Source: a bacterium
GTDB lineage: Bacteria > Babelota > Babeliae > Babelales > JAUWHS01
Reading direction: 5' to 3'
Assembly: GCA_043818275.1 (NCBI GenBank)
Contig: JBDRFY010000069.1
Coordinates: 1 to 54,614, forward strand
DNA length: 54,614 nucleotides
In this document: positions 18,647 to 49,300 of the stretch, piece after piece
Numbering within the stretch: the stretch's first letter is position 1
How the letters are laid out: each line of letters begins with the position of its first letter
The notes under the pieces: model-generated
Databases searched by the model: none
Told to the model about the DNA's origin: nothing
Seen by the model: only the letters and a program-made list of their open reading frames with translations
Made by a program: the position numbers and the translations under genes

Positions 18647-18657
18647 TTAATTAAAAG

Positions 18658-19207: not shown

Positions 19208-19253
19208 CAACAGGCAAAATGACAATATGGTAAAAAATATAAAAGGAGAGAGA

Positions 19254-21803
19254 ATGAAAAAAAATCTTATAGTTTTATTAACACTTTTTACAATCAACAT
19301 TTGTAACGCCATAGACATCAACATACCAATCATAGATAAAAAAATAACACCATTTGAAGGTTTTGAACCTGGTGAAGTTTTAAAATTTGCTGGTAGACTT
19401 ACAGATAAAACAATTAATGCGATTAAAGAAAAAGTAACAGAAGCTACCAACAAACTTCAATTTTGGAAAGAAGAAGTCAAAAAGCAAGAAAAAAGTGTTC
19501 CTATAAATGTCCCTTATAATTATGAAGAACTTTTATCGGTAGATAATCAGGATTTCTTTACACAAATTTTTGGAACAGCAAAACAAATATCTGTCGGAAA
19601 AAATAAAGATAAAATGTCTGTCTGGATTATCGGAACAGAAGGTATTCCTTACGAATATAATCCTTCCAATAAAATACATAATCTTTCATGGATAAAGCAA
19701 ATAAAAAACTCGGGTATAACAAAAATTGCTGTTGCTGAAGACGGAACTCTTGCCGGAATAGATTCAAATGGGAATATAGCAATATATAAAAATAATAAAT
19801 GGGAACCAACAAAAACAACAAAAAATGGCATAGCAACCAAAATGACTGCGGAGGCAGCTGAAAATTTCAAAGCTGTTGATGTTGATATTGCAAATGAAAA
19901 AGAAATTGTTTATTTAAACGAAAATGGAGACATTTACAAATCTGATGATGGGGGAATGAATTGGAAATCATTGCCATCACTAAAAAATGAAGAAAAATTC
20001 CAGAATGTTTCCATGGGAGCTGATGGAACAATTTTTGCCTGCGCGGATAATTTAGCCGCTTATCATTTTGATGAACAAAAATGGATAGCATTTCCTAATA
20101 AAATTAAAAAAATTGCAGCCGGAAGCAAAACCAACCTGGTTGGAATTTCAAAAGACAACCAGTTATTAATCTTTGACGCAAGCGAAAATAAATGGATGCT
20201 GCAAAAAAATTTAATCTCTGATGCCGCAAAAAAAGGCAAAACAATCGAAGTTATAGATATCGCAACGAACAGTTCCGGAAACATCTGGGCAATAACAAAT
20301 AAAAATGAAATCATAACTAACATCGCAGCAAATACAAATGACGCTTTACAAAAATTAAAATCAGGAAAAGTCATAACAATAAATAGTTTAAGCGAAAATA
20401 AATTTTTAAGAGTTGAAAACAAAGAAAGAAATTATTTAAAACCTACAGCAACAGACCCGGAAGATCCAAACACTTTATTTACAATAATTCGTTCCGGACA
20501 ATATTTTGGACTTCAATATAAAAATCAGTTTGTTACATGTGATCCAAACGAAGGCCTTGGAGAATTTAAAGGCTCAATTAAATTATCGCCTAATTTTTCA
20601 TCCGGAGAAAAATGGCTGCTTTCTGGTGAATTAGAACAATCAACAATTACAAGTTATGCAAACAAAAAAAATCTAACATTTATTGATTTGGAAACAATTT
20701 TAAAAGAAATTAAAAAAATTCAAATGGAAGCTATAGAAAAACAACATACAGAAGCTCAAATAGCTGCTGCTGCCGGAACTTCCGGTCTTGGAACAGCCGC
20801 GGCAGGTGTTACAACTGCAGCAGGAGCTGGAATTGGCGCTGTTGTTGCTGGCGTAATTATGGCAGTTATGGGAACAGTTGTTCCTGGCGCCGGGAACATT
20901 AGTGGAGCCCTGATTGGACTCGCTATTGGAGGTGCAATAGGAGGAACTTTTGGAGGTATGCTTGGCTTCTCAATGGCCACTTCTGGATTTGCTGCAAATG
21001 CTGTTATTGCAACAGCCATTGAATTTCAGCATCAAAGATCTGCTGCAGATGTGGAAGATTTGGCAAGTCCTGTTTTAAACAATCCGGGATTATTGGGCAA
21101 AATTGTTATGGCATACTTTTTAGCAACTGAAAAAAGCGATCAGGAATTTTTACCGACCTTATTCGATATAGAAATTCAAACAAAAAAACAAAAAGAGATG
21201 CTGGCAACAGACGAAAAAGATTTTAAGCAAGATTATCAATTTGAAGTTCCCGGAAACGGATTTATCAAATTTAAATTAACCGGCAGCCCTTTAAATTTCT
21301 GGCTATGGGATGAAGACAAAAAGGAAATAATTTTGCCTGGAATAATTGGCGGACAAAATAATACAACAATTTCAATTGGAACCCCAACCGGCTGGCAACC
21401 AATTGTAAAAAAATATGAAATAATAAAACCAAATACTCCAAATTCATTCTGGATTGAAATTAAGGACAATAAATTAATAATTGGGTCAGGAGATTTAATC
21501 GGTTCGAATAAAATTGGCGAAAGTGAAACAATAGAAGATCTCTCAAAAGTTAAATATGTCACATTTAGTAAACTTCCAACCTCTGATGTGGAAATTTCAG
21601 AAGTTAATTTTTACAGTAAATTATTAAGCGAAGAAAAACCAATTGAAAAAATTGAAATCACAGAAAAAGAAAGAGCTGAACAACCTAAATTTATTTCTCC
21701 AGCGCCAAAACTTATTTCTCCTGCTCCAACAAAAAAAGAAGAAACAAAACCTGAAAAAATTATTGTAACAGAAGAAGAGGAAGAAGCTTACGGCGGGATT
21801 TAA
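19254..21803 (+). CDS. Exported tectonin-like/beta-trefoil/FAMeT-like protein with glycine-zipper hydrophobic insert (paralog A)
   Basis: ATG 19254 after AAGGAG matches the paralog start; blades KQISVG, TKIAVAEDG, QNVSMGADG, KKIAAGS; Gly/Ala segment ~20755-21020; ends EEAYGGI. Confidence 0.75.
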   Translation: MKKNLIVLLTLFTINICNAIDINIPIIDKKITPFEGFEPGEVLKFAGRLTDKTINAIKEKVTEATNKLQFWKEEVKKQEKSVPINVPYNYEELLSVDNQDFFTQIFGTAKQISVGKNKDKMSVWIIGTEGIPYEYNPSNKIHNLSWIKQIKNSGITKIAVAEDGTLAGIDSNGNIAIYKNNKWEPTKTTKNGIATKMTAEAAENFKAVDVDIANEKEIVYLNENGDIYKSDDGGMNWKSLPSLKNEEKFQNVSMGADGTIFACADNLAAYHFDEQKWIAFPNKIKKIAAGSKTNLVGISKDNQLLIFDASENKWMLQKNLISDAAKKGKTIEVIDIATNSSGNIWAITNKNEIITNIAANTNDALQKLKSGKVITINSLSENKFLRVENKERNYLKPTATDPEDPNTLFTIIRSGQYFGLQYKNQFVTCDPNEGLGEFKGSIKLSPNFSSGEKWLLSGELEQSTITSYANKKNLTFIDLETILKEIKKIQMEAIEKQHTEAQIAAAAGTSGLGTAAAGVTTAAGAGIGAVVAGVIMAVMGTVVPGAGNISGALIGLAIGGAIGGTFGGMLGFSMATSGFAANAVIATAIEFQHQRSAADVEDLASPVLNNPGLLGKIVMAYFLATEKSDQEFLPTLFDIEIQTKKQKEMLATDEKDFKQDYQFEVPGNGFIKFKLTGSPLNFWLWDEDKKEIILPGIIGGQNNTTISIGTPTGWQPIVKKYEIIKPNTPNSFWIEIKDNKLIIGSGDLIGSNKIGESETIEDLSKVKYVTFSKLPTSDVEISEVNFYSKLLSEEKPIEKIEITEKERAEQPKFISPAPKLISPAPTKKEETKPEKIIVTEEEEEAYGGI

Positions 21804-21824
21804 AATAATTAATATTATAACGGT

Positions 21825-21859
21825 ATGGCGTCAGGGAATTACCTTGACGCCATTTTTTT
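21825..21859 (+). terminator. Intrinsic terminator
   Basis: ATGGCGTCAGGG-AATTA-CCTTGACGCCAT followed by a T run. Confidence 0.85.
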
Positions 21860-21933
21860 AAACCATTGATTTGCAATATAATTTTTTTTAAAACTAAAAA
21901 ACACTTAATCAAAAAAAATAAAAAGGAGAAAGA

Positions 21934-24306
21934 ATGAAAAAAAATCTTATAATTTTGCTAACACTTTTTACAATCAACATTTCTAACGCAATAGATATCA
22001 AAATACCAATCATAGACAAACCGGTAACAATTGCTGAAGACTTTCAACCCGGAGAAGCTTTAAAATTTTCAGGAAGACTTACAGACAAAACAATTAACGC
22101 AATAAAAGAACAAGTAACAGAAGCTACCGACAAACTTCAATTCTGGAAAGAAGAAATCAAAAAACAGGAAAAAAGTGTTCCTATAAATGTCCCTTATAAT
22201 TATGAAGAACTTTTATCGGTAGATAATCAGGATTTTTTCACACAAATTTTTGGAACTGCAAAACAAATATCTGTTGGAAAGAATAAAGATAAAATGTCTG
22301 TATGGATTATTGGAACAGAAGGTATTCCTTACGAATACAATCCTTCAAATAAAACGCATAACCTTTCATGGATAAAACAAATTAAAAATTCGGGAATAAC
22401 AAAAATTGCCGCAGCTGAAGATGGAACGCTTGCTGGAATTGATTTAAATGGAAATATTGTAATATCAAAAAATGACAAATGGATTCCAACCAAAACAACC
22501 AAAAATGGAATAGCCATGAAAGTGACAGCTCAAGAAGGTGAAAATTTTAAAGCTGTTGATGTTGATATTGCAAATGAAAAAGAAATTGTTTATTTAAATC
22601 AAAATGGAGATATTTATAAATCTGATGATAGCGGAAACAATTGGAAGATATTACCGTCTGAACCTTCTATAAAAAAAGATGAAAAATTTCAAAATGTTTC
22701 AATAGGAGCAGATGGAACAATTGTCGCGTGCACAGATAAACTTTCAGCTTATTATCTTTATGGCCAAAGATGGATGAATTTTCAAGTTAAAATAAAAAAA
22801 ATTGCCGCTGGAAGCAAAACAAATCTGGTTGGAATTTCTAAAGATAATCAGTTATTAATTTTTGACGCAAATAAAAATAACTGGATGCTGCAAAAAAACT
22901 TAATCGCTGATACCGCAAAAAAAGGAAAACCAATTGAAGTCATCGATGTCGCAACAAACAGTTCCGGAAACATCTGGGCAATAACAAATGATAATAAAAT
23001 AATATCCAACATCGCGGCGAATACAAATGAAGCTTTGCAAAAATTAAAATCGGGAAAAATTGTAACAATAAATAGTTTATGTGAAAACAAATTTTTAAGA
23101 GTTGAAAACAAAGAAGGAAATTATTTAAAACCTACAGCAACCGATCCGGAAGATCCGAACGCATTATTTACAATAATTCGCTCAGGACAATATTTTGGTC
23201 TTCAACAAAGCAACCAATTTATTTCATGTGATCCAAATGAAGGAGTTGGAGAATTTAAAGGCTCGATTAAATTATCGCCAAATTTTTTGGCAAATGAAAA
23301 ATGGCTGATTTCAGAAAAATTAGAACAATCAACAATTACAAGTTACGTAAATAAAAAAAATCTGGCTACCGTTCAATTAGAAAAAATAGTTCTTATATTA
23401 AAAGAAGAACAAATGAAACAGATACAAAAACATCACGATTCCTGGCATGGAATGGCACAAATAATAAGATATGTTCTTCCACTTGACCTACCAACAGCTA
23501 TTGCGGCAGCATTTGCTGTAGCTACAGTAGTTGAATTTCAAAGACAAAGAACTGTGGCAGAACTTGAAGATTATACAAATCCTGTATTACAAAATCCTGG
23601 TCTCTTGGGACCAATGATTGCAATGGCTTATTTACCCCCAATATTTAAAGGAGATGAAGAAGATCTAACCGCTCTATTTGATATAGAAATTCAGACAAAA
23701 AAACAAAAAGAAATATTAGCTACAGATGAAAAAGATTTTAGAAATGATTATCAATTTGATATTCCCGGGCAAGGATTTATCAAATTTAAAGTAACAGGCA
23801 ACCCTTTAAATTTCTGGCTATGGGATGAAGACAAAAAGGAAATAATTTTGCCTGGAATAATTGGCGGACAAAATAATACAACAATTTCAATTGGAACTCC
23901 TACCGGTTGGCAACCAATTTTTAAACAAGATGAAATAGTAAAACCAAATACTCCAAATTCATTCTGGATCGAAATTAAGGACAATAAATTAATAATTGGG
24001 TCCGGAGATTTGATAGGATTAAATAAAATTGGCGAAAGTGAAAAAATAGAAGATCTTTCAAAAGTTAAATATGTCACATTCAGTAAATTGCCTACTTCAG
24101 ATGTTGAAATTTCAGAAGTAAATTTCTATAGCAAATTATTAACTCCCCGATTAACCGAACCCATAGCAACAATTCAACCTGTGCCAACAAAAAGAATAAC
24201 ACCTGCGCCAACCAAAGTTATTTCACCAACACCACAAAAAGAACAACCTAAAATCCAACCAAAAAAAATAACAGAAGAAGAGAAAGAAGCTTACGGCGGA
24301 ATTTAA
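21934..24306 (+). CDS. Tandem paralog B of 19254..21803 with an alternative central segment
   Basis: Long identical stretches (e.g. KKQEKSVPINVPYNYEELLSVDNQDFFTQIFGTAKQISVG); different shorter centre; ends EAYGGI. Confidence 0.75.
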   Translation: MKKNLIILLTLFTINISNAIDIKIPIIDKPVTIAEDFQPGEALKFSGRLTDKTINAIKEQVTEATDKLQFWKEEIKKQEKSVPINVPYNYEELLSVDNQDFFTQIFGTAKQISVGKNKDKMSVWIIGTEGIPYEYNPSNKTHNLSWIKQIKNSGITKIAAAEDGTLAGIDLNGNIVISKNDKWIPTKTTKNGIAMKVTAQEGENFKAVDVDIANEKEIVYLNQNGDIYKSDDSGNNWKILPSEPSIKKDEKFQNVSIGADGTIVACTDKLSAYYLYGQRWMNFQVKIKKIAAGSKTNLVGISKDNQLLIFDANKNNWMLQKNLIADTAKKGKPIEVIDVATNSSGNIWAITNDNKIISNIAANTNEALQKLKSGKIVTINSLCENKFLRVENKEGNYLKPTATDPEDPNALFTIIRSGQYFGLQQSNQFISCDPNEGVGEFKGSIKLSPNFLANEKWLISEKLEQSTITSYVNKKNLATVQLEKIVLILKEEQMKQIQKHHDSWHGMAQIIRYVLPLDLPTAIAAAFAVATVVEFQRQRTVAELEDYTNPVLQNPGLLGPMIAMAYLPPIFKGDEEDLTALFDIEIQTKKQKEILATDEKDFRNDYQFDIPGQGFIKFKVTGNPLNFWLWDEDKKEIILPGIIGGQNNTTISIGTPTGWQPIFKQDEIVKPNTPNSFWIEIKDNKLIIGSGDLIGLNKIGESEKIEDLSKVKYVTFSKLPTSDVEISEVNFYSKLLTPRLTEPIATIQPVPTKRITPAPTKVISPTPQKEQPKIQPKKITEEEKEAYGGI

Positions 24307-24318
24307 AAAGGAGGAAAA

Positions 24319-25608
24319 ATGAAATCAAATAAAATTTTATTATTCTTTTTATTTATCTTTTCTCAAATACTGACCGCTCAATTCAATCAAATTCCCGGAA
24401 CATTGCAAAAAATCACTGTTGGAAAAGAAAATAATCAGCTTGCGGTTTATGGAATTCATCCAAACAATACAATTTTTAAATACACACCAGGCATTACCCC
24501 TCCATGGACGGGATTTCAAAATCCTTTTTCATTAAATCAGATCGATTTGGGAAACGATGGTTTTTTGATGGGCGCAAATTTAGCGGAATCCAAAAACATT
24601 TATAAATTTGACGCGACAACAAATCAATGGATTCAGACAAATTTAACCGCGTTTCAAATTGTTGTTAACAATAACAACCTAATAATCGCTCTTGCCAAAA
24701 ATTATCTGGTTTTTGAATCAAATGATGGCGGAAACAGCGCTTATCCAATTTCTTCAGACACATTTAAAACTGTAACGGCAAGTAAAAAACCACAGGAAAG
24801 ATTAATTTTGGCAATTAATAAAAATGACAATAAAATTTACAAACATCAGGGCGGAAAAATTTGGACTATTTTTTCAAATTCAACAAATATTACAAAAATA
24901 GCAATTGGCAACGCGCAAAATATTTGGGGAATCGATTCGCAAAACAAACTGGTTAAATGGAACAATTCTACCTGGATTAGACAAGAAGAACCGCCGTTAA
25001 ATTTCATCCCGCCAATTATAGATATTTCTGTTAATTCTGATGGCGTTTTATTTTTAACAACCGACAGCGGAGAAATTTTCGCAAATATTGAAACTCAACC
25101 AATTTCACCTCAAACCAATCCTCAACAACCAATACAACAACCAACGCAACAACAAATACCTCAACAAACACAAACAACAATTCAACAGCTATCTTTAAAT
25201 CAATTTAATATTTTTAAACAACAGATTGAAACGAATCTTAAAAATCTGGAAAATCAAATTAAAGAAAATGGTGAAAAAGATCAATTAAGAGAAAAGCAAA
25301 TTGGTTATTTAAATCAACAACTCAAAGAACTGCAAAGTAAAATCGTAACATTACAAGAAGAAATCAAACAAGCCACAACTCAATCAACAATTATTCAACC
25401 ACAGATTTCACAACAAAATTTAACTGCTTCTCCACCAATTCAGGCAATTCCGGTTCAAACAACAATTCAGCAACCAGCAACAGTCCCAACTCAAATACAA
25501 TCTCAATTAACAATACAACAACCAACACAACAAACTTTTTCAACACAAAGATCAAGAACTACATCAACAGCGCCAACAAACAGCGCGGTAAGTTTTAGAA
25601 GAAGATAA
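24319..25608 (+). CDS. Exported tectonin-like propeller plus coiled coil with Gln/Thr/Arg tail
   Basis: AGGAGG RBS; signal peptide; IPGTLQKITVG, TKIAIGNAQNIWGID, DISVNSDG blades; ends SFRRR. Confidence 0.7.
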   Translation: MKSNKILLFFLFIFSQILTAQFNQIPGTLQKITVGKENNQLAVYGIHPNNTIFKYTPGITPPWTGFQNPFSLNQIDLGNDGFLMGANLAESKNIYKFDATTNQWIQTNLTAFQIVVNNNNLIIALAKNYLVFESNDGGNSAYPISSDTFKTVTASKKPQERLILAINKNDNKIYKHQGGKIWTIFSNSTNITKIAIGNAQNIWGIDSQNKLVKWNNSTWIRQEEPPLNFIPPIIDISVNSDGVLFLTTDSGEIFANIETQPISPQTNPQQPIQQPTQQQIPQQTQTTIQQLSLNQFNIFKQQIETNLKNLENQIKENGEKDQLREKQIGYLNQQLKELQSKIVTLQEEIKQATTQSTIIQPQISQQNLTASPPIQAIPVQTTIQQPATVPTQIQSQLTIQQPTQQTFSTQRSRTTSTAPTNSAVSFRRR

Positions 25609-28216: not shown

Positions 28217-29701
28217 ATGAAATCAATAAAAAAAATATTTAGCTTATTTCTTCTGATTCCTGTTTATCTAAACACATCAACAAAAACATTTTTTATGCAA
28301 CGACCAATTCAGCAAGATGCGGTCATGCAAAACGCAATGAATCTGGAATTTTTAAGTTCCGCCGCAATGCAATACAAAAAAGATTCTACAACAAATTGCG
28401 GATTCATATTATCGGGAAATGTATTTTATGAAGAATCAACAAATAGCTCTGATATAACCAAATATTTTTTTCCAACCGATAAAACGGAACTTGTCGTTGC
28501 CGGAAACACATCTGGAATAGCACGTGATGATATAGACATCGCGGCCGAATGGTTGAACATAAAAAACTGGGATCAGGATGATTTAAAAACTGATTACAAT
28601 TCAAAAATAAGTATTGATCCTAAATTTAAAATGTTTGGTGTAAATCTGCAAATTCATAAAGGGCTGAAATTTTTCAGTAAAAATTTTTGGCTAACAATTA
28701 TTCTGCCATTTCTACAAAAAGAAACTGATTTAAATTTACAGGAATATGATATAAAAAATCCACCAACACTTCCTCCGCTTAATGTACCAAGAGTAAGAAC
28801 CACAGGCGCACTGGATTTTTTTCAGACTTCTTATTTAAAATATTCAAAAATTAAAAATGGCGTTAATAAACTGGCGGGTCTTGCAGATATTAATTTAAAA
28901 CTTAGTTATTTTTTCAGAAATAAAAAATCCTGGGCTCTTGCTTTTTATCCTCAATTAACAATACCAACAGGATACAAACCAACAGCTGTAAATCTTTTTG
29001 AACCAATAATCGGAAATGGTAAACACTGGGCCCTTGGCGCGGGAATAAACTGGCAATCGGAAATATTTGATGAAGATAATAGCGTTTTAAGCATTCTTTT
29101 AAATATCGATTACAACTATTTATTTGAAAACACACAACCAAGAACATTTGACTTAAAAGAAAATGGTCCTTGGAGCAGATATACAAGAATTACCGACATT
29201 GACAACACAACTATAAATTCCACACCGGCAAATCTTTTAACTCAAAATTTAAAGGTCACACCGGAATCAGTCGTGAATTTACTTTTAGCACTTCATTTCA
29301 GCAAAAATGATTTTGTTAATATTGAATTTGGTTATAACTTCTGGTGGAAAGACAAAGAAAAAATCAAATTAAAAAATGAATGGATTGAAAATATGGCTTT
29401 ACTTAAAATAAATGGAAATGGCGTCTCAACAAATCAAACGATATCAAAAACTACAATCGCCACAGATCCTGTTAACGAACAAGCTGACACGACAAAAACT
29501 CCTATAAAATTTGAAGATTTAAATTTTGATTCAGTAACACATCCTTCAACGCTTTCAAACAAAATTTATTTATCTTTGGGAATTGAAGGTAACTGGAAAT
29601 TTAATATTTTCCAGACAAATCTGGGCGCGTCGTATGAATTTGGAGATACAAAAGCCTTATCTTCCTGGGGAATCTGGCTGCAAGGCAATCTTTATATTTA
29701 A
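28217..29701 (+). CDS. Putative outer-membrane beta-barrel protein
   Basis: Signal peptide; many alternating amphipathic strands (NLKLSYFF, WALGAGINW, NIEFGYNFWW, NLGASYEF); C-terminal strand WGIWLQGNLYI. Confidence 0.6.
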   Translation: MKSIKKIFSLFLLIPVYLNTSTKTFFMQRPIQQDAVMQNAMNLEFLSSAAMQYKKDSTTNCGFILSGNVFYEESTNSSDITKYFFPTDKTELVVAGNTSGIARDDIDIAAEWLNIKNWDQDDLKTDYNSKISIDPKFKMFGVNLQIHKGLKFFSKNFWLTIILPFLQKETDLNLQEYDIKNPPTLPPLNVPRVRTTGALDFFQTSYLKYSKIKNGVNKLAGLADINLKLSYFFRNKKSWALAFYPQLTIPTGYKPTAVNLFEPIIGNGKHWALGAGINWQSEIFDEDNSVLSILLNIDYNYLFENTQPRTFDLKENGPWSRYTRITDIDNTTINSTPANLLTQNLKVTPESVVNLLLALHFSKNDFVNIEFGYNFWWKDKEKIKLKNEWIENMALLKINGNGVSTNQTISKTTIATDPVNEQADTTKTPIKFEDLNFDSVTHPSTLSNKIYLSLGIEGNWKFNIFQTNLGASYEFGDTKALSSWGIWLQGNLYI

Positions 29702-29710: not shown

Positions 29711-30133
29711 ATGTTAAAAAATAAAATAATTTCTTTAACTTTTATATTCTTTCTATCGCTAATTTATTTTCAGAAAACAAATGCTGGAAGAATCAGACAA
29801 AAAACAAAAAATATTGATTTAATAAAAGAAGAAGTACAAAAAGAAACAAAACAACAAGCAATATCAATTGTTAAAGAACTTGAACAACAACTTGCCCAGG
29901 AAAGCAAAGCGCAAATGGAATTAATGTCGAATCAAATGAAAAAAGAATTTAAAAATGTTTTAGATAATTTGCAGGAACAAATAAAAAACAAACTTACGCT
30001 CGCATCCCAAAAAGAACTCAATTACGAACTGGAGCTCCATGAAGCAAAAAAACTTTTAACAACTAAAAAGAAAAATAAATTAGATAAGGAGTTGCAAGAA
30101 ATTACACAAAATAAAAGGAATGTGGGATGGTAA
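29711..30133 (+). CDS. Small exported coiled-coil protein
   Basis: AAGGA RBS; signal peptide ending TNA; Gln/Glu/Lys heptads; overlaps the next start. Confidence 0.65.
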   Translation: MLKNKIISLTFIFFLSLIYFQKTNAGRIRQKTKNIDLIKEEVQKETKQQAISIVKELEQQLAQESKAQMELMSNQMKKEFKNVLDNLQEQIKNKLTLASQKELNYELELHEAKKLLTTKKKNKLDKELQEITQNKRNVGW

Positions 30134-33084
30134 AATTGAAAAAAATTTTTTTAATATTTTTACTTTTTTTTCCATCTTTAAAATCATTTGAAGTTGTATC
30201 TAAAGAAATGCAAGAATTACAAAAAATACTTGCTGAAAAAAAAAGTAAATTACAAGCAGGCGAACAAATTTATATTGGAAAAAAACCTGAACCTGGCGTT
30301 GGAACTGGAGCCGGTGTTGGAACTGGATCCGGAGTTGGTGCTGGAGCCGGAGTTGGAGGACCTGAAGCTGTAATCTCTAGAAAGCCAACAAAAAAACCTG
30401 TCGTTAAACCTGAAAAAAAAGAATTAACTCAAAATGAAAAAAACATCCTACAAACAGAAATCATTAAAATATTTAAAGATGTCAGAACAGAAAATTTAAT
30501 ATTTTTATCTTCTAACGGGGATAGCAAAAATCCTCCAAATCCTCTGCGGCAAACAATAAATAAAATAAAAGAAATTAAAAATGTTAATGACTGGTATCTC
30601 GAAAAAATCATTGAACGATTGAATGCAATACCTAATTTTTTGAAAATCGAAAGTTTAAAACTTTTTAAATTTAAAAATAATGTTTTTGAAAAAGGAAAAG
30701 AATTAGATAACACAATTAATCTCATTTTAAATTTGTTTAAAGATTTTGTGGCAAATTTTAGCTCCATTAAAATTGAATTAACAAAAAATCAATCTGATTA
30801 CGATCTTCAATCCTCAATTGTATCATTTATAATAAATGCAAAGGCATATGAAAAATCTCAAAAAAATTTATCCGAAACAGATAGAGCGCAAACTTTATCT
30901 GATGATACATTAATCTTACTTTTCAAAAGCATTAATGATTCAATTAAAAAAGATCCGGATGATCAAAATATAAGAAATATTTTTTTCAATTTTTTAAATA
31001 TTTTAAGAATGAGTGATGAATTTGTAAAATCTCAAGATTCATTATTCAAACAAGGAACTGGACCAACAGGAGCACCCGCAGTAATGCTTATCGCTTTAAA
31101 CCAACCAACGCCTACTATTAATCTTGCAACATTTTTAAATTCCTTAAAACAATGCTTTAACAATCCTGGTAAGGCGATTAAAGATCTTAAAACAGAATTA
31201 TCAGGTAAAACTGATTCTACAGACCAAGAAGCATTTGAAACCTTGTTTAATTTTTTGGTTGCAAAGAAAGAAGCTGGGACTGAAGAAGAAAAAGAAATAA
31301 AAGAATTGATTGAAGAAATAGAAAGAAAAAGATCTCTACCAGAAGAACAAAAACAAAAAAAAGAAGCTCTAATTGCCATGCAAACAATGTTTGAAGAAGC
31401 TAAATTAGAAAGAAAATTACAACCCAAAATACAAGATTTAATAAACAAAATTTCAAAAATAGAAAAAATTGAAACGTTAGAAACAATATTAAGCGAATTG
31501 AAAAGCTATTATGAAATACTTCAATTGACGGAAAAAGAGGAAAGTGTAAGCAATATTTTCAATTCGATTAATTCAATAAAGGCGAATCCTCTAATCGAAA
31601 TAAACCAGGTTATTGAAGAAATATCTAAGGAATTTCAATCTATTAATCCAAAAATTACAATTTCAACAAAACTCACAGAAGCTTTCGTAAATTTATATAT
31701 AAAGCATATTTTTCTTTTAATGATTCCCAAATATCATTACGAATTATTAAAAAATATCTGGTATTATTTGCCTGATTTAATAAAAGAAAATCTTACAGAA
31801 GAAGAAAAACGATCTTTAAATCTAAATTATGATAAGCTTCAAACGGAAAATATTTATTCAATAAATTTAAATCGAAATCAATTAATAACTCAAATTACAA
31901 ATTTGCTTGAAATAGACAAAATTCAGAATAAGGATTTAAAAGAAAAAATTATAAATTTCACCAATCTCGCGCTTAACACAATATGCAATTTAATTTTAGG
32001 ATTAGAAGTTGATGGAAAAACATTTGAAGATTTTATTATTGAAAAAGCAAGCTTGATTCCTTTAAAACGAGCTCAAAACGTGTTCTTAATATCCTTTTAC
32101 AATTATCCCTGGTTATTTGGACTAAAATCTATTAAGCCAATAATTGGCATCGAATATAAAAATATTGAACCATTTTTTAAATTTATTAATCCATACGGAT
32201 TACTTCTTTTAATTCTGCAAGCTGCAACATCTGATAATGCAAATTTATTCGGTGAACAAAGCTCATTATTCAAAATGTTAAAATATTTTGAAACAAAACA
32301 AACAACTCCAATAGAAACAATTAAACTTTTTATTGAAAAAGCAACACTTCCATTTAAGGACGATGAATTTAAAGATTTAAAAAATTTGGTTCCCCCAAAC
32401 AATCAATTACCTGAATACAGTATTTATTTAGCAACTTCGCAGTACATTTCTGATGCCATAAAAGCTTTAGAAGAATATGATGTTGAAAACTTTGTACTCA
32501 ACCTAAAAAAATATCTTCAGGAAACAAGTCTTTCATTTTTTGAGTTTGAAAAAAATTTAGCAACTGAATTGCAAAAAAAGTTAGAAGGATTAAAAACAAA
32601 AAAATCGGAGTCAGATGAAGATATCGATGAGGCTTTTAAATTCTTACTTATAACAGAACCACCAAAAGAAATCCAAAAAATAGTCACCGCAAAAAAAGCT
32701 GAATCAGAAAAAACAACTGTCGAAACTCTCCCAAAACGTGTTGGCTTTTCATTGGAAGACCTTAAGAAACAACAAGCAGAAAGAGGAAGAATCCAAAAGG
32801 AAGGAACAGCTGAAGAAAAAGCAAAACTTAGAAAAACGCCAACGGGAGAAAGAGAAAAATTGTTAGAAGAAATCACAAAACAAAAAGAAACAGAAGAAGA
32901 AATTCAAAAAAAACGATTGGAAGCATTTAAAAAAACTGAAAAGACAAGACTAGAAAAAATAAAACGACTTGAGAAAGAAGAAACTGAAAGACAACGCACC
33001 GAAGCCGAACAAAAAAGTCAGAGACCTCTAACTAGACCAACTAGACTACCACCACAACCACCTACCACAACTTCTGTCATATAA
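30127..33084 (+). CDS. Large exported helical protein with Gly-rich linker, charged coiled coil and Pro-rich tail (effector-like)
   Basis: Signal peptide; GVGTGAGVGTGSGVGAGAGVGG (30295-30360); ends RPLTRPTRLPPQPPTTTSVI. Confidence 0.7.
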   Translation: MVKLKKIFLIFLLFFPSLKSFEVVSKEMQELQKILAEKKSKLQAGEQIYIGKKPEPGVGTGAGVGTGSGVGAGAGVGGPEAVISRKPTKKPVVKPEKKELTQNEKNILQTEIIKIFKDVRTENLIFLSSNGDSKNPPNPLRQTINKIKEIKNVNDWYLEKIIERLNAIPNFLKIESLKLFKFKNNVFEKGKELDNTINLILNLFKDFVANFSSIKIELTKNQSDYDLQSSIVSFIINAKAYEKSQKNLSETDRAQTLSDDTLILLFKSINDSIKKDPDDQNIRNIFFNFLNILRMSDEFVKSQDSLFKQGTGPTGAPAVMLIALNQPTPTINLATFLNSLKQCFNNPGKAIKDLKTELSGKTDSTDQEAFETLFNFLVAKKEAGTEEEKEIKELIEEIERKRSLPEEQKQKKEALIAMQTMFEEAKLERKLQPKIQDLINKISKIEKIETLETILSELKSYYEILQLTEKEESVSNIFNSINSIKANPLIEINQVIEEISKEFQSINPKITISTKLTEAFVNLYIKHIFLLMIPKYHYELLKNIWYYLPDLIKENLTEEEKRSLNLNYDKLQTENIYSINLNRNQLITQITNLLEIDKIQNKDLKEKIINFTNLALNTICNLILGLEVDGKTFEDFIIEKASLIPLKRAQNVFLISFYNYPWLFGLKSIKPIIGIEYKNIEPFFKFINPYGLLLLILQAATSDNANLFGEQSSLFKMLKYFETKQTTPIETIKLFIEKATLPFKDDEFKDLKNLVPPNNQLPEYSIYLATSQYISDAIKALEEYDVENFVLNLKKYLQETSLSFFEFEKNLATELQKKLEGLKTKKSESDEDIDEAFKFLLITEPPKEIQKIVTAKKAESEKTTVETLPKRVGFSLEDLKKQQAERGRIQKEGTAEEKAKLRKTPTGEREKLLEEITKQKETEEEIQKKRLEAFKKTEKTRLEKIKRLEKEETERQRTEAEQKSQRPLTRPTRLPPQPPTTTSVI

Positions 33085-33096
33085 AAAGGACTAAAA

Positions 33097-33975
33097 ATGA
33101 AATTTAAAAATTTAACAAAATTTTTTATATTATTTTTAATGCTCTCCCAAAACATTTCAGCTCAACCTCCTCCCCCACCACCACCTGCGCCACCAGCTCC
33201 TCCTGCGCCACCACCACCAGGCGCACCAGCAGCCCCTGGAATGCCTTCAATAAAACCAACAATTAAAAAAGATGTGTGGAATGAAAAATTAAAAAAGCGT
33301 TACAAAAACATTTTTCAAGCTTTATCCAAAAACATAATCATTCAAGCCTTAGGTAACATAAAAGAAACGCTAACTAAATTAAATAGCGGTGAGATAACAA
33401 TTCCTGAATTAGATAAATTAGGTGAAGGAGAAGGTAAAGTTCAAACCCGACAAGAAATCCAAATAGTTTACAACGCACTAAAAAATAAATTTGATGAAAT
33501 TATTTCTGATCTTGACAAGGTCAAAATTGAAATCGATGAAGAAAATGATACTGCTTACATTAAACCCTATTCTTTTGATGTTGATGAAATAGATCGAAAA
33601 ATGGCTACTTGTTGGTATCAATTAGAAAGTAAACTTGAAGAAAAAATTACAAATAAAACTCAACGAAATTTATATGTAGAAAAAATAACAACCTTTATTG
33701 ATGAAAATTTTAATATTCCAATCAGCAAACTCACAGTAAATATAAAAACAACTGAAAAAGAAGCCTCTGCCGCTGCAACAATTCAACGGGTAGCAAGGGG
33801 ATATCTCGGCAGAGAAGAAACTAAAAAAAGAAAAGAAGAAAAAGAACAAGAAGAACTTCAAAAAGAACAAAAACAACGTCAAGAATTTGTAAGAACAGGA
33901 TTGGAAAAAGCGAAACTATCAAAAGCTCTAAAACGTAGGCCTCCTACAAAAAAAAGGAAGAACAATGATGATTAA
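33097..33975 (+). CDS. Exported poly-proline and IQ-motif protein (effector-like)
   Basis: Signal peptide ending ISA; PPPPPPPAPPAPPAPPPP; AAATIQRVARGYLGR fits IQxxxRGxxxR; basic tail KRRPPTKKRK. Confidence 0.75.
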   Translation: MKFKNLTKFFILFLMLSQNISAQPPPPPPPAPPAPPAPPPPGAPAAPGMPSIKPTIKKDVWNEKLKKRYKNIFQALSKNIIIQALGNIKETLTKLNSGEITIPELDKLGEGEGKVQTRQEIQIVYNALKNKFDEIISDLDKVKIEIDEENDTAYIKPYSFDVDEIDRKMATCWYQLESKLEEKITNKTQRNLYVEKITTFIDENFNIPISKLTVNIKTTEKEASAAATIQRVARGYLGREETKKRKEEKEQEELQKEQKQRQEFVRTGLEKAKLSKALKRRPPTKKRKNNDD

Positions 33976-34633
33976 AAAAAGTTTATTATTAATTAGTTTT
34001 CTCTTCCTAAAACAATTAAATTGTTTTGATGTCATTTCATCTGAAATGCAGGAACTATTAAAAAATAAAATTAATCCTGATGAAAAAATTGAAGCGCTAA
34101 AAAATGTAGAAGCCGAAAATCAGAACCTGATAAAAGAGATACAAAAATTAAAAAATGAAATGGAAGAAAACAAAGAAATTCTAAGTATATTACAAAAAAT
34201 AACCGCTGATCCTGAAATGGGCAACCTGGAAAAAGAGCTGACAGAATTAAAAAAAATCAGGGAAGAACTCGAAAAAGCAAATATTGAAAAAAACACACAG
34301 ATACGACAATTACAAAGAGAAATAGATAAAATTAAATTAGAAAATCAGCAATTAAATTCGTTTAAGGAAGAACTCGAAAAATTAAAGGTTGAAAAAGAAG
34401 AATTGGAAAAACAATTAGAAGAACAAAATGATAAAAAACAAACTTCAGTAAATAAGCTTGTTGGTAAACTTGAAAAAATGAATGTTGATCAAAAATATAT
34501 TGAAAAAATGAAACAAAAACTGACAAGAAGCCCTGAAATAGAAGAAGAATATAACAATATGATTGGAAATTTATTAACCAAAACACTGCGCAGTATTCCT
34601 ATAGAATATTTACTTGAAGATTTGGCAGAATAA
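33965..34633 (+). CDS. Exported long coiled-coil protein
   Basis: Signal peptide; continuous heptads; mature N-terminus FDVISSEMQEL similar to the 30127 protein. Confidence 0.7.
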   Translation: MMIKKSLLLISFLFLKQLNCFDVISSEMQELLKNKINPDEKIEALKNVEAENQNLIKEIQKLKNEMEENKEILSILQKITADPEMGNLEKELTELKKIREELEKANIEKNTQIRQLQREIDKIKLENQQLNSFKEELEKLKVEKEELEKQLEEQNDKKQTSVNKLVGKLEKMNVDQKYIEKMKQKLTRSPEIEEEYNNMIGNLLTKTLRSIPIEYLLEDLAE

Positions 34634-35957: not shown

Positions 35958-37520
35958 ATGAAACAACCGCCAATCGGAATTCAGACATTTGAAAAAATAA
36001 TAAAAGATGATTATTTGTATGTGGATAAAACAAAACAAATTTATGACATCATAACAACAGGAACAACATATTTCATTTCACGTCCACGCAGATTCGGAAA
36101 ATCATTACTTTGTTCTACGTTAGAACAAATATTTAAAGGCAATAAAGAATTATTCAAAAATTTATGGATTTATGATTCAGACTATCAATGGGAATCGCAT
36201 CCGGTAATACGGATAGATATGTCAAAAATAAGACTCAACAACACCGAAGATTTTGAAAAAAAATTATTTAATCAAATGAGAGAAATCGCAAAAGATAATA
36301 ACATTGACTATACAGACTACAATTCACCTGAAGAATTGCTATCTGCGATAATCAAAAATATGTCCAAAAAAAACAAGGTCGTAATTATTGTTGATGAATA
36401 TGACAAACCAATTCTTGATCATATAACAAATACACAAATCGCTGAAAAAGTCAGAAATATATTAAAATCTTTTTATGGCCAATTTAAAACTTTGGACGAA
36501 TATTTAAAATTTATATTTTTGACCGGTGTCACCAGATTTTCAAAAATGTCCGTTTTTTCCGGATTAAATAATTTAAGAGATCTTACGTTTAATGAAAAAG
36601 CTGCAACTTTGTTTGGCTATACTCAAAAAGAACTGGAATTTTATTTCGAAGAACGGATAAAAATTTGCGTGACAAAACAAAAAACTTCAAAAAAGCAGAT
36701 CCTTTTACAATTAAAAGACTGGTATAACGGTTATAGTTTTGTTGATGGAAAACAGAAAGTATATAATCCTTTTTCGATATTGCTCTCACTTGATGATTAC
36801 AAATTCAAAAATTACTGGTTTGAAACAGGAACTCCAACTTTTCTGGTAAACATGATCAGAGAAAAAAATTTTGATTATACCGACCCAAAATCTTTTGAAG
36901 CAACAGAATTACAACTGGGAAATTTTGATATAAATAACATAAATTTAAAAACGTTACTTTTTCAGACCGGATATCTGACTATAGATAGTTATGACCAGTC
37001 ATTAAGAAAATACCATCTAAAATATCCAAACAACGAAGTTGAAGAATCACTGTTGGAAGTTTTACTGGAATCCTTTTCAGGAATAGATGCTGTAATTTCA
37101 GATGATACAATTATAGAAATTACAAATGCATTGATGAAAAATGATTTAAATCAGTTTCGCGAAATTATATATAATTTTTTTGCCTCAATGCCATACACAA
37201 TTCAGATAAATCATGAAAAATATTATCAGTCAATTTTTTACACACTATTGCGATTATTAAATATTCGGATAAAAGTTGAAGTTGCAACAAATACTGGACG
37301 AATAGATTCGGTCGTTCAGATTAAAGATTTTATTTATATCTTTGAATTTAAGATTGATAAAAGCTCGACTGAAGCATTACAACAAATTGAAGACAAAAAA
37401 TATTATCAAAAATTTATGTCCTCCAAATATAAAGATAAAAAAATAATTATTGTCGGCGTAAATTTCGATACAAAACAAAAAAACATTTCTGATTTTTCTT
37501 TTAAAACAATTAAAAAATAG
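35958..37520 (+). CDS. AAA-ATPase-like protein with C-terminal PD-(D/E)XK nuclease domain
   Basis: PIGIQTF..I...YLYVDKT, RPRRFGKS, DEYDKP, YWFETGTP, GRID...IFEFK...ALQQI. Confidence 0.92.
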   Translation: MKQPPIGIQTFEKIIKDDYLYVDKTKQIYDIITTGTTYFISRPRRFGKSLLCSTLEQIFKGNKELFKNLWIYDSDYQWESHPVIRIDMSKIRLNNTEDFEKKLFNQMREIAKDNNIDYTDYNSPEELLSAIIKNMSKKNKVVIIVDEYDKPILDHITNTQIAEKVRNILKSFYGQFKTLDEYLKFIFLTGVTRFSKMSVFSGLNNLRDLTFNEKAATLFGYTQKELEFYFEERIKICVTKQKTSKKQILLQLKDWYNGYSFVDGKQKVYNPFSILLSLDDYKFKNYWFETGTPTFLVNMIREKNFDYTDPKSFEATELQLGNFDINNINLKTLLFQTGYLTIDSYDQSLRKYHLKYPNNEVEESLLEVLLESFSGIDAVISDDTIIEITNALMKNDLNQFREIIYNFFASMPYTIQINHEKYYQSIFYTLLRLLNIRIKVEVATNTGRIDSVVQIKDFIYIFEFKIDKSSTEALQQIEDKKYYQKFMSSKYKDKKIIIVGVNFDTKQKNISDFSFKTIKK

Positions 37521-40301: not shown

Positions 40302-41684
40302 TTACTTATTTATCTTAATATCGCTTACTTTTAATCTTTTTTTCAATTGCTCAATGTACGTTTTTTTTGGCTGCAACCCTAAAAAACGATCCATAATTAT
40401 AGCCGCAGCGCTTCTAACTGAAAGGTGATTATAATCAGTTAATCCTTCAATAGGCAATAATAAATAATCACTTCTTTGCAAAATTTCATCACTCAAGCCT
40501 TGCCCTGTTCCAAATAGAAACAAAACAGGCTTTTTTTGTTTCCAAACAAGACCCTGAGAATTAAAATCTATTTTTTCCTTATGTTCAAAATCTTTGGCTG
40601 AAGTTGTAATAATAATTGGATCGGTACCTTCTTTTTCTCTTATTTGTTTTATAACATCATCTAACGACCTTGCTGGCAATACTCTTTCAACCGCCTGATA
40701 GCGGGATAAATTATATTCTTTGCCTATATCCGATAACCAAAAATTTAAAAATTCTTTTAAAATTTTCAGTTGATCTTCAATTTTTGTGACCACAAAATAA
40801 TTTTTAATTCCATAAGTTTTACCTGATCGCGCAATATCATGAATATCCAAAGATGTGATTGACGTGTTTCCAGATTTATTATTAACAATAACATCGGTAT
40901 GCATCAAAGCTACGTAGTGGTTTGGAATAAACTTGTTGCAAAGATCAACGACAGCCCTCGTTAACTCCTGACTTCTTAACCAGTCAAACCGATTTAATAA
41001 TGTTTTTTCACAGGATTGTTCTTTTCGCCAATTTTCAATTTTTGCGTGATCACCGGATAAAAGAATTTCTGGAATTTGTTCACCCTTCCATTCTTTAGGC
41101 AAACCAAATTGCGGATAATCCAAAAAAGGAGTCTGAAATGATTCCTTTTCAACAGATTCAGTCTTTCCAACCACTCCAGAAATTAATCTTAAAAAAGCTT
41201 CTATAAAAACTTGCGCCGGTAAATCTCCGCCCATTAAAACGTAGTCACCAATTGATAAAACCAAATCCGCATAATGTTGCTCAACCCGATCATCAATTCC
41301 TTCATATCTGGCGCAAACTAAAATTATATGTTGAGTATTTTTTGATACATTCCCACCTAACGGATTACCAACAAATTCTTCAACAAATGTATTTAAAATT
41401 TTCTGATCAATTTTTTGTCCCTGGGCTGAAAAGAAAACTTTAAATCCTGGCCCCCATTTTTTCTCGCTTTGCTCAATTGCCGCCTGGATAACCTCCGGTT
41501 TTATAATCATACCCACGCCCGGTCCACAAGTTGGCTCGTCCATTCTTTTTTTGGGCTCAACCAAATCGGAAAAACGAATTAAATTAAATTCAACGATTCC
41601 GTTTTTAATAGCCCGGTCAACTAAGCTGATTTTAATAAACGAATCATAAATTTCTGGAAAAACAGATAATATTGAAATTTTCAT
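40302..41684 (-). CDS. trmD: tRNA (guanine-N1)-methyltransferase TrmD fused to a second SPOUT-type (DUF2168-like) domain
   Basis: RYEGIDDR and SIGDYVLMGGD; C-terminal domain YVALMH...LDIHDIARS..TYG...LFGTGQGL...YNHLSVRSAAAIIMDR. Confidence 0.93.
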   Translation of the reverse strand: MKISILSVFPEIYDSFIKISLVDRAIKNGIVEFNLIRFSDLVEPKKRMDEPTCGPGVGMIIKPEVIQAAIEQSEKKWGPGFKVFFSAQGQKIDQKILNTFVEEFVGNPLGGNVSKNTQHIILVCARYEGIDDRVEQHYADLVLSIGDYVLMGGDLPAQVFIEAFLRLISGVVGKTESVEKESFQTPFLDYPQFGLPKEWKGEQIPEILLSGDHAKIENWRKEQSCEKTLLNRFDWLRSQELTRAVVDLCNKFIPNHYVALMHTDVIVNNKSGNTSITSLDIHDIARSGKTYGIKNYFVVTKIEDQLKILKEFLNFWLSDIGKEYNLSRYQAVERVLPARSLDDVIKQIREKEGTDPIIITTSAKDFEHKEKIDFNSQGLVWKQKKPVLFLFGTGQGLSDEILQRSDYLLLPIEGLTDYNHLSVRSAAAIIMDRFLGLQPKKTYIEQLKKRLKVSDIKINK

Positions 41685-41748
41685 TATTAATACAAAAAGC
41701 ACCACCAAATAATGGCAGTGCTTTAATTTTAATTATTATAAAATTTTA

Positions 41749-46373: not shown

Positions 46374-49300
46374 ATGAGTAAAAAACTTTTTCCAAGAAAT
46401 ATTTTTTTAATATTTTTATTTTTTCTATTCACAAACTTATCTCCAGCAGAAACAGTATTACCTGAACCAGGAGCACAAATCACATTACCAACAGAAGAGC
46501 CTGTTCTAGAGGCAATAAAATCTGAACAGCCAACAACAGAAACTCCTTTTGTAGAACAAGCAACACCAACCACACAGACAACAGAAGGAATAAAAGAATC
46601 AACTGCTTATGAAAAAATATTAAAATATGGAGACCGAATCAGACTACGTTTTGCAAATCTTGAAAATACAACATTACACACTCAACAAAATTACTACACA
46701 CAACCAAATACATCAAAAAACCAAATTATTTCTGGCTATCTAAATGTCAATGCATATCAAAAATATCAACAGAATCTAAATGATGATGAATGGATTATTG
46801 CCGGTCCATTTCCTTTGCCTCAGGATTATAAAAAAGGGGAGGCTGTAAAAAGTGGCGATGTTGTCCGATTTTTAAATCCAAAAACACAAAAATATTTACA
46901 TTATTTTTATGATGAAAAATATAAAGCTCCTGGAAGTGATTTTTTACTGGAAGTTTGCGCCTTTGACCAAAACAGCCCCGCAAACAACTGGCAAATAAAT
47001 GTTGTGGAAAATACGAATGTCGGTAATGAAATAATATTTAATAAAACTTTATTTACAATTGAAGCATTAAATGATTTAGAAAAAAAATATATATCAATTT
47101 CACAAGCCTTATTCATGGTTGTAAACCAAAATCAACAAGTGGCTGGATTAACTGACAATAAAAACAATACCTGGTTTATTGAACAACCGAATCAAAAACC
47201 AGAAGCTGCGCCAAAAAAAGAAATAACGGTCGTTGAAGAAGTAAAAGGTGAGGAAAAAGTTAAAAAGGAAGAACAAAAAATTACAGGGCTTACAAATACT
47301 ATGTGGGCAATAGATACTTTTGGCCGGGCATTAGTAAGAGAAAATATAAATGAAACAAATCAAACCGGAAATAATTGGTCCAACGTTTCTGAAAACGGTT
47401 TAGCTGTTAAAATAATAAACAATATAGCAGTAGGACCACAAAGCTCACTTTGGATTATTGATAATTCTAATCAACTTTATTTCAAACAAAGCACAACCCC
47501 ATGGATTCTTGTACCAAACTCAAATGAAAACACAACTTCTCAATTTTTAGACATTGATATCGGAACAAACATTCCCGGAGGAGGAAATTATAATATCTGG
47601 GCAATAGGAACAAACAACAAAATTTATTACAGATTAGGTACAACTACAAGTAATTTGATGGGAACAGATTGGCAAGAAATTCCATTTCAATCAAAATTAA
47701 ATAACGATTTACCAAAACAAATTTCAGTTGATCCAATTGGCAACCTAGCAATTGTTACAACATTGGGAAATATCTATTATCGTCAAACAAATATTCAAAA
47801 TCCAACAGGAACACGCTGGCTTGAAATCACCAAAAACGGTATGACTACTGGTGAGCCAATCAAACAAGTTCGTCTTGGACCTAATGCAATATCATGGGCA
47901 TTAAATAGTAATCAAAGAATATATTTTATGGATAACATTGTAGGCGCTGGAAAAATTTGGCAGGAAATTCCTGATGGTTATTTAACTGATATTGCAATTA
48001 ACGTAAATGGAACAGTCATTGGTATAAATGCTAACGGAAATTTATACAAACGTGTAAACACAGAAATTTCGCCACAAGGATCCGGCTGGGTAAAATTAAA
48101 AGAAAACGTTCAAAAAGTTTGTTTAGCAACAAATAATACTCCTGTATGCATAGACAGATCAAACTATACTTTTTATAACGAAAAACAGGAAACTTATACT
48201 CAATTTATTGGAAGTAAAACTTCTTTCTTAAACACAAATAATGAATGGTCTGAAATTCCATTAGATGAAATTAAGCCAATCGGCTTTCATGAAATAACAA
48301 TTAATTCACTTGGCCTTACTTTTGCTCTTGATAAATTTTTTAATAGTTATTACCGCACGGGAATAACTACAGAAAATATTAAGGGAAACAACTGGATTAA
48401 ATTTAATTCTATACTTCCTCTTTCTTACGAACTCAGCCAGCAAGATGGAAACTCATCTTTATTGGGAACAAATATAGTTAATACACCATTGCCAACTAAA
48501 ATAGGAATTACGTCAAATAATCCACTAGGAACAACACAGGAAAGTACAACAAATATAGAAACGCTACAATTTGAAGCAGGATCAAATGGGTTTGCCTGTT
48601 CTTTAAGTTTTTTTGAAAACAAATATATTGTATATTTCTTTGATAAAAATCAAAAAAAATGGATTCCTGATTCAACTTCAAAAGAATTAAAACAAATTGC
48701 TCTTAAAACTGAAAGCGAAAAACATACATTATTGGCCGTTGATTTAAATAACAAAGTTTTTATAAAACAAAACATAACACTACAAAACATACAAGGAGAC
48801 ACCTGGCAAGAAATTACCGGTAAGGATATGCAGCAAATTTATGTAAGTCCTAACGAAACAATTTGGGGTCTAAGTACAGAACAACATCATAAATTTAAAA
48901 ACAGTTTTTGGGTTTATTACAGAAAAGGAAATGTTTGGGCTCCATTAAACACTGCTTTGTCCAAACTGACTGATACATGTCCAAATTTTTTAAAATATGG
49001 TGATAAAATTTCTTTGTGCACAGCTTTGAACAGATTAATGCAAAAACAAAAAGCTGGATTACTTCTTGATAGCGAAAATTATCTTTTGTTTGCAAATGGA
49101 GCCACAGGAAAAAATTCACAAACATTTGAAATTATAAATCCAACAAATTCAACGGATACTTCATTGGTTAAATATAACGATCCAATAATGTTGAAAACTG
49201 ATGAAGGAAAATATTTAATGATTGTCGTAAATAAATTTTTATATACCCAGGCAACTGAACAAAAAAATGCAACAACCTTATCCTTTGGGGTAATTAGCAA

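Follow-up and report, generated by a model that had tools for sequence, protein, structure and literature searches.

The window analysed here is a stretch of 54,614 nucleotides from a bacterial genome of 1.33 Mb (92 contigs, ~30% GC, 94% complete; G000). On its forward strand lies an open reading frame (ORF) of 292 codons, the subject of this report, whose predicted product carries a signal peptide, a proline tract, an IQ motif and a basic C-terminal tail. The nearest named relatives of the PheS protein of the window (65–71% identity) come from Candidatus Dependentiae, Candidatus Babeliales and candidate division TM6. Dependentiae are obligate intracellular parasites of protists, and how the members of this large, almost uncultured phylum handle their hosts is, to our knowledge, essentially unknown. 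The main new result of the analysis is that IQ motifs recur across the order to which the source genome belongs.

The 292-residue protein and its IQ motif

The gene looks genuine. A Shine-Dalgarno-like sequence precedes its start codon, its stop region overlaps the start of the next gene by 11 nt, and ordinary bacterial genes (encoding L19, TrmD, Ffh, PheS, MurC and a CCA/poly(A) polymerase) are found on the same contig. In public DNA data, identical pieces of the gene occur as short, low-depth contigs in four runs from three studies, one possibly the source sample; no RNA run is listed as carrying it. Many joints and loose ends from the public runs at 80% likeness stem from low-complexity matches to other organisms and were left out of the interpretation.

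By inspection, the N-terminus has the make-up of a Sec signal peptide: an n-region (MKFKNLTK) with lysines at positions 2, 4 and 8, a hydrophobic core of nine residues (FFILFLMLS) and the segment QNISA, behind which cleavage would leave a glutamine first. The preliminary description of this DNA had called the protein exported, and the signal peptide bears it out. A strict signal-peptide script rejected the sequence because the proline tract has no charged residue within the 40-residue limit. Besides the signal peptide, no membrane segment was found in the protein, nor a lipobox or a C-terminal barrel signal. The proline tract would form the N-terminus of the mature protein, and its DNA is a short imperfect repeat of 9–15 nt (family D1). 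The layout otherwise agrees with what had been described before: a proline tract after the signal peptide at 33166–33240 (residues 24–48), IQRVARGYLGR at 33781–33813 (residues 229–239) behind AAAT (residues 225–228), and a basic C-terminal tail of RRPP type, which corresponds to residues 271–288. Downstream of the IQ motif, 70% of residues 240–279 are Glu, Lys, Arg or Gln. The best-modelled part of a single-sequence AlphaFold2 (AF2) prediction is a continuous helix (residues 220–278), predicted to contain both the IQ motif and the charged stretch, the latter (residues 240–270) at a pLDDT of 76–87.

The rarity of these features was assessed within the source genome, using 2464 ORFs of at least 60 residues and, among them, 1267 of at least 100 residues. 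The strict pattern IQxxxRGxxxR has one match in the larger set, which is the protein described here, compared to ~0.07 expected from composition. Runs of five or more prolines are found in 2 of the 1267 longer ORFs and KKRK in 16, and the tail, with a net +10 over its 18 residues, exceeds the 99th percentile of charge among C-terminal windows, which is 8. A nuclear localization signal (NLS) had also been proposed for the tail. The classical pattern does fit (KKRK), yet its loose form K[KR]x[KR] is present in 555 of the 1267 ORFs (44%) and is uninformative for that reason.

No relative of the protein was detected. A word-indexed search of 5.8 billion clusters returned nothing but the protein itself, and a HMMER search of 1.84 billion representatives gave eight weak matches (E 1e-6 to 9e-4). 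Seven of these fall in the proline-rich N-terminal part or in scattered low-complexity stretches; the remaining one is a 1319-residue IQ-repeat protein (P0006), aligned with residues 223–257 at 44% identity. A six-frame search of 41 related genomes revealed no genuine relative, its best match (G040, E 5e-4) being to a Pro/Ala frame that lies opposite the gene for a Gly-rich lipoprotein and is spurious, and none was found in a genome-contig scan or in the ESM Atlas. A sequence search of the PDB gave nothing under E 0.3, with Sp17 as a weak match at E 0.92. Foldseek found no PDB match to the model at E ≤ 0.001, and its top rows, Dps four-helix bundles with a TM score of 0.16, were dismissed as meaningless. 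The sub-threshold Pfam matches DUF4485 (20.2 bits against a cut-off of 24), DUF2089, BPL_N and Mt_ATP_synt were not adopted, nor was the sole NCBIfam match, DmpI (16 bits against 70). Neither Pfam nor NCBIfam indicated a kinase-like or other catalytic family, or a DNA- or chromatin-binding one.

The textbook IQ consensus is [FILV]Q-xxx-[RK]G-xxx-[RK], usually with alanine upstream, and AAAT-IQRVARGYLGR satisfies it. The motif had previously been termed canonical. This holds for the consensus and for an order-specific profile (E 2.7e-4; see below), but not for the Pfam IQ family PF00612, which scored 14.5 bits on the whole protein, 18.2 bits on the C-terminal 76 residues and 18.9 bits in a six-frame search of the genome, against a cut-off of 20.3 bits.

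Recurrence of IQ motifs across the order

Of the 201 genomes of the order that were searched in six frames, 22 have a PF00612 match over the cut-off and 56 have one at E ≤ 0.1. None of 14 named control genomes, AT-rich genomes among them, contains a match over the cut-off. The same is true of 151 GC-rich genomes of an unrelated class, seven of which match at E ≤ 0.1, including one unpublished genome (G244). We read 32 loci around the PF00612 matches, and a regular expression retrieved 33 distinct ORFs of at least 100 residues with an IQ-like pattern; two loci (L040 and L060) escaped the expression and were read separately. By a strict but crude rule, a signal-peptide-like start is present in 19 of the 28 IQ ORFs that are complete at the 5′ end, compared to 274 of 977 ORFs of G000 (Fisher p 2e-5); by a loose rule, the counts are 24 of 28 and 481 of 977. 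The IQ ORFs of L040 and L060 likewise begin in a signal-peptide-like manner, as judged by eye.

The IQ segments of the order read AAT(K)IQxxxRGxxxRK, and the proteins that carry them are mutually unrelated outside the motif. Its Pfam partners are ankyrin repeats (two proteins of G001, a genome of the same genus as G000, and one of G006), an otubain-like peptidase (G141) and pentapeptide repeats (G111); in the other IQ proteins of the order, no known Pfam domain apart from IQ was found. Representative loci, one with six IQ motifs in tandem, are listed in Table 1. A separate observation concerns a 605-residue signal-peptide protein of another genome (L007, G033 contig C1, 1186–3003), in which PPPPPPPAPP is followed by VLSAIEEIVAGGKKLSHV, WH2-like by eye and with no Pfam WH2 match.

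The order-specific IQ profile was built from 40 segments of other genomes, none of them from G000. It matches two of the 2464 ORFs of G000, namely a 683-residue protein of contig C88 (E 1.6e-4) and the 292-residue protein, with the next ORF at E 1.3. The segments closest to the IQ motif of the latter are IQSVARGYLARK, IQRIARGYLVRK and MQSVARGYLARK. Its textbook consensus and its match to the profile support the view that this motif is more than a chance occurrence and that the protein is part of a pattern seen across the order, in which signal-peptide proteins carry IQ motifs. The 683-residue protein, which carries the other IQ motif of the genome (EKAATTIQRTTRKFLERK), also has a signal peptide. 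It lies in what could be termed a secretome island (L048, contig C88, 1742–15195), where barrel paralogs are followed on the same strand by five ORFans with signal-peptide-like starts (422, 240, 683, 611 and 151 residues).

None of the 201 genomes of the order has a match over the cut-off to PF13499, the EF-hand pair family, and G000 has no match to it, so a calmodulin-like partner of that kind, if any, would be the host's. In the main texts of the literature searched, no IQ motif or PF00612 was tied to Dependentiae, TM6 or Babela, nor, in any relevant way, was calmodulin.

The locus behind the barrel gene

Five closely spaced genes, of which this one is the fourth, lie on the same strand, and all of them encode signal peptides (overlaps of 7 and 11 nt, gaps of 9 and 12 nt; Table 1). 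The run is headed by a member of an outer-membrane barrel family that usually has several copies per genome; the Atlas model of this 494-residue protein resembles the Phenol_MetA_deg barrel with a TM score of 0.60–0.65. The 985-residue orphan directly upstream contains a (GVGxGA)n tract, for which 18-nt repeats at 30287–30357 code, a long charged C-terminal helix and a proline-rich end. Its final residues are TSVI, which we take to fit the rule for class I PDZ ligands. Within the first 33 residues, the 985- and 222-residue proteins share 10 of 17 residues in position (E 0.026), which hints at a duplicated 5′ end and proves nothing.

In the same-genus genome G001, the order of genes at this locus is conserved (membrane protein, barrel, 152-residue protein, 237-residue protein, aminotransferase, MurC), and the genes for the 985- and 292-residue proteins are both missing at the syntenic site. 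The position is occupied there by a gene for a YhcG-type PD-(D/E)XK nuclease (PF06250 + PF17761; L037, contig C128, 5822–6907). As to signatures of a mobile element, low-complexity A-rich repeats are all that was seen around the insert. Two genomes from other families of the order have different genes directly behind the barrel ortholog. In G024, this is a 947-residue signal-peptide ORFan with two polyproline stretches and the C-terminal end PPPPPPPPLPKK (L070, contig C8, 3556–6399); in G007, it is an 810-residue signal-peptide coiled-coil ORFan that ends in KKLPRKKRGQR (L072, contig C14, 6790–9222). Neither has a Pfam family or detectable homology to the 985- and 292-residue proteins (best E 0.14 and 0.44). 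As the pair is missing in G001 and ORFans without detectable homology to it occupy the position in G024 and G007, the site behind the barrel gene is a variable one, taken up by exported proteins that evolve fast.

Further along the window, a gene with AAA-ATPase_like and PDDEXK_9 domains lies between the aminotransferase and murC genes (35958–37520) and is missing from that position in G001. A paralog is located inside the barrel-gene cluster of contig C88 (L048, 3470–5017). The gene looks like a mobile or selfish element that marks variable loci. Elsewhere in the window, five large proteins contain Tectonin domains, a mostly eukaryotic β-propeller family (14795–25608 and 46374–50186), one of them together with a ricin-type lectin domain and one with Hyd_WA repeats. 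On the reverse strand (40302–41708), the gene for the tRNA m1G methyltransferase TrmD encodes a fusion with another S-adenosylmethionine-dependent RNA methyltransferase domain (PF09936).

Table 1. Positions of the features of the 292-residue protein, of the neighbouring genes and of selected IQ loci in other genomes of the order
Feature	Positions	Strand	Basis or remark
ORF of 292 residues	33097–33975	+	ORF read from sequence; contig JBDRFY010000069.1
Shine-Dalgarno-like AAGGA, 6 nt ahead of the ATG	33086–33090	+	Read from sequence
Signal peptide, residues 1–22 (MKFKNLTKFFILFLMLSQNISA)	33097–33162	+	Inspection; cleavage likely after ISA, ahead of Q23
Proline tract, residues 23–50 (QPPPPPPPAPPAPPAPPPPGAPAAPGMP)	33163–33246	+	18 Pro in 28 residues
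Body, about 174 residues, no known family	33247–33768	+	Predicted mainly helical with one β-hairpin (AF2)
IQ motif with alanine prefix, residues 225–239 (AAATIQRVARGYLGR)	33769–33813	+	Consensus and order-specific profile; Pfam sub-threshold
E/K/R/Q-rich charged helix, single-α-helix-like, residues 240–270	33814–33906	+	Composition, AF2 model
Basic tail, residues 271–288 (KAKLSKALKRRPPTKKRK), net charge +10, then NNDD and stop	33907–33960	+	Composition
494-residue outer-membrane β-barrel gene, multi-copy family, first of tight run	28217–29701	+	Family in 41 of 41 genomes
140-residue signal-peptide coiled-coil protein gene, 7-nt overlap with the 985-residue gene	29711–30133	+	G001 ortholog, 36% identity
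985-residue orphan with signal peptide, directly upstream of the 292-residue ORF	30127–33084	+	No relatives found; missing along with the 292-residue ORF in G001
222-residue signal-peptide coiled-coil protein gene, start overlaps end of the 292-residue ORF by 11 nt	33965–34633	+	G001 ortholog, 48–50% identity
Six-fold tandem IQ array, signal-peptide protein	L069 (G087 C4) 1316–3544		Pfam, 110 bits
Otubain-like C65 peptidase with IQ, signal-peptide protein	L054 (G141 C84) 893–3049		Pfam
Two adjacent ankyrin proteins with IQ-like motifs, signal-peptide	L050 (G001 C83) 2723–6615
Pentapeptide-repeat signal-peptide protein, IQ at end	L044 (G111 C9) 682–1569

Possible function and relation to known systems

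Export by the Sec route is in keeping with what has been reported for the phylum. In one Dependentiae isolate, 44% of the coding sequences have a signal peptide, ORFans are enriched among these, and 78% of the ankyrin proteins carry one (excerpts of PMC6561590). Type II secretion genes, with two copies of gspD, are core to the TM6/Dependentiae phylum (excerpts of PMC4776705). G000 contains three secretin genes and two genes for T2SS-E ATPases, which could equally serve type IV pili. VirB4 and FHIPEP, and with them a type III or type IV core, were not found in this 94% complete genome.

The closest bacterial parallels are SidJ and SdjA of Legionella pneumophila, calmodulin-activated effectors with a C-terminal IQ helix (excerpts of PMC6858067 and PMC8546864). 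The 292-residue protein resembles them, as described there, in having a eukaryote-type IQ motif near its C-terminus and in coming from an intracellular bacterium that parasitizes amoebae; the calmodulin binding is a property of SidJ and SdjA, and for the present protein it is proposed. It has no sequence relationship to either and is not a member of their family. SidJ possesses a kinase-fold glutamylase domain and moves via Dot/Icm, a type IV system, whereas no catalytic domain is recognisable in the protein described here, which has a Sec signal peptide in a genome where no VirB4-type ATPase was found. The arrangement AA-x-x-IQ-xxx-RG-xxx-R in a long helix is also that of eukaryotic IQ proteins such as neuromodulin, neurogranin, Sp17, ASPM and the myosin lever arms, and a charged helix behind the IQ motif is known from some of these lever arms. 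The one IQ-driven match among the 1.84 billion representatives, P0006, is an IQ-repeat protein of this type. In contrast to them, the protein is bacterial, has a signal peptide, shows no homology beyond ~35 residues and remains sub-threshold in Pfam. It shares with the ankyrin proteins and ORFans of Dependentiae the succession of a Sec signal peptide and a eukaryote-type interaction module (excerpts of PMC6561590). Ankyrin proteins of its own genus carry IQ-like motifs as well, whereas the protein itself has no repeat domain.

We favour, tentatively and with slightly less than even confidence, the reading that the protein is a species-specific, Sec-exported effector that uses its IQ helix to dock calmodulin of the host, or else a light chain resembling calmodulin. 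After removal of the signal peptide, it would cross the outer membrane and reach the host cytoplasm. There, the IQ helix may dock calmodulin or a similar light chain, probably in the calcium-free form, which would anchor the protein or serve as a switch that reports the presence of the host. Proline tracts are able to bind profilin, SH3, WW or EVH1 modules on general grounds, and the N-terminal polyproline rod could offer such modules a second docking site, while the tail with its charge of +10 might bind acidic membranes or importins.

Several points weigh against this proposal. It requires us to infer secretion past the periplasm and contact with the host cytosol, and an outer-membrane barrel gene stands first in the operon-like run that includes the gene, an arrangement that would suit an envelope role, too. 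Every motif of the protein is short and low in information, PF00612 failed to reach its cut-off in all three scans, and the protein came from the scanning of many windows, with a chance expectation for the strict pattern of 0.07 per genome. Since no search yielded a homolog, conservation of the motifs cannot be checked in this protein; its AF2 model, obtained from the single sequence, is poor (mean pLDDT 57, pTM 0.35). As to the order-wide pattern, the rules for calling signal peptides are crude, as 28–49% of the background passes them, the background ORFs are from G000 only, and the 151 genomes of the control class are unmatched in base composition.

Of the other explanations, the foremost is a role in the envelope of the bacterium itself, which we regard as unlikely. 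The protein would stay in the periplasm or on the surface, in a complex with the barrel and coiled-coil proteins encoded next to it, with the polyproline as a TonB-like rigid spacer and the IQ-like helix and tail binding bacterial partners, peptidoglycan or lipid instead of calmodulin. Such a role would suit the tight same-strand run of five signal-peptide genes that includes the barrel, the signal-peptide, helical and proline-rich or basic-tailed ORFans directly behind the barrel ortholog in G024 and G007, and the position of the other IQ protein of the genome, likewise behind barrel paralogs. Proline-rich periplasmic spacers are established in TonB, and the likeness extends to a rigid proline-rich stretch, an exported protein in an envelope context and an operon headed by a barrel gene; however, the TonB C-terminal domain and a membrane anchor are both lacking, as are a lipobox, a C-terminal barrel signal and any further membrane segment. 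The pair of 985- and 292-residue proteins is also dispensable, as G001 keeps the barrel and the genes for the 152- and 237-residue proteins without it. Furthermore, an envelope role leaves unexplained the repeated appearance of a eukaryote-type IQ motif on signal-peptide proteins that are unrelated to one another, some of which have ankyrin or otubain domains, whose targets are eukaryotic. It is improbable that the gene is merely a young or decaying lineage-specific one, whose motifs arose from proline-codon slippage and an A-rich, lysine-rich background and which has no host-directed function. None of the searches gave the protein a relative, the same-genus genome lacks it and its score falls below the Pfam IQ threshold, its proline tract is a short imperfect DNA repeat, and it occupies a variable locus where selfish-looking PD-(D/E)XK nuclease genes adjoin it or stand at its site. 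Yet an open frame of 292 codons at 30% GC, where ~8% of codons would be stops, has a chance of the order of 1e-11 as estimated from composition, and this one has a ribosome-binding site, is coupled in translation to the gene downstream, which is conserved, unites three individually rare features in one small protein and matches the order-wide IQ profile.

The two remaining explanations rest on the tail and on the proline tract. It seems very improbable to us that KRRPPTKKRK is a working NLS and that host chromatin, or nuclear targets of calmodulin, are what the protein acts on. PTKKRK does fit the monopartite pattern K-K/R-x-K/R, and both the scarcity of KKRK and the charge of the tail set it apart, but the loose pattern pervades this lysine-rich proteome, basic tails bind acidic lipids equally well, and the family searches found no DNA- or chromatin-binding family in the protein. 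We give even less weight to the reading of the preliminary description, in which the protein is an actin-directed effector. As spelled out here, polyproline would recruit profilin-actin, a WH2- or FH2-like element would nucleate or elongate filaments, and the tail would bind capping protein. Proline-rich tracts combined with WH2 elements are established in the WASP family and in the bacterial nucleators VopL, TARP, BimA and RickA, to which VopF and ActA may be added, and the 28-residue tract at the mature N-terminus, followed by a stretch (TIKKDVWNEKLKKRY) that by eye loosely resembles a WH2 helix and LKKx, is reminiscent of them. Unlike in these nucleators, the mature protein would begin with the tract, and there are no relatives in which conservation could be checked. 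In addition, no WH2 (PF02205), FH2 (PF02181) or other actin-related Pfam family was detected in the whole protein at E ≤ 1, and residues 44–100, behind the tract, matched no family even at E up to 10, although the HMMER filters, which remove most matches above E ~0.1, limit such high-E negatives. In length, too, the ~230 residues behind the tract fall short of an FH2 domain. The resemblance of the tail to a capping-protein-interaction (CPI) motif, which the actin proposal included, finds no support either: compared to the CPI consensus, LxHxTxxRPK(x6)P, the segment LSKALKRRPP fits at L1, R8 and P9 and deviates at H3, T5 and K10, so that three of six defined positions agree.

Beyond the single protein, the reading of the IQ helix as a calmodulin-docking element can be widened, and in this form we consider it possible but doubtful. 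IQ would be a widespread, hitherto undescribed module of Dependentiae secretomes that captures host calmodulin. It would be set on unrelated exported bodies (ORFans, ankyrin proteins, a peptidase of otubain type and pentapeptide-repeat proteins), also in tandem with up to six motifs, and would act as a switch or as an anchor, functional nowhere but in a eukaryotic cell. The 292-residue protein might then be a minimal adaptor: its IQ motif would link calmodulin to proline-recognition proteins such as profilin on the polyproline rod, and its basic tail would place them in the nucleus or at acidic membranes.

For the protein alone the pay-off is modest, as it concerns one species-specific gene with a putative motif, and the weight lies mostly on the order-wide pattern. 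The occurrence of IQ motifs on exported proteins across the order suggests that these bacteria attach to the calcium signalling of their hosts by a means not described so far. If these motifs bind calmodulin, Dependentiae would join Legionella in using the universal calcium sensor of the host as a cue or handle, by a route of Sec and type II secretion instead of an injection system, and dozens of otherwise unreadable ORFans would gain a sequence handle for the choice of effector candidates.

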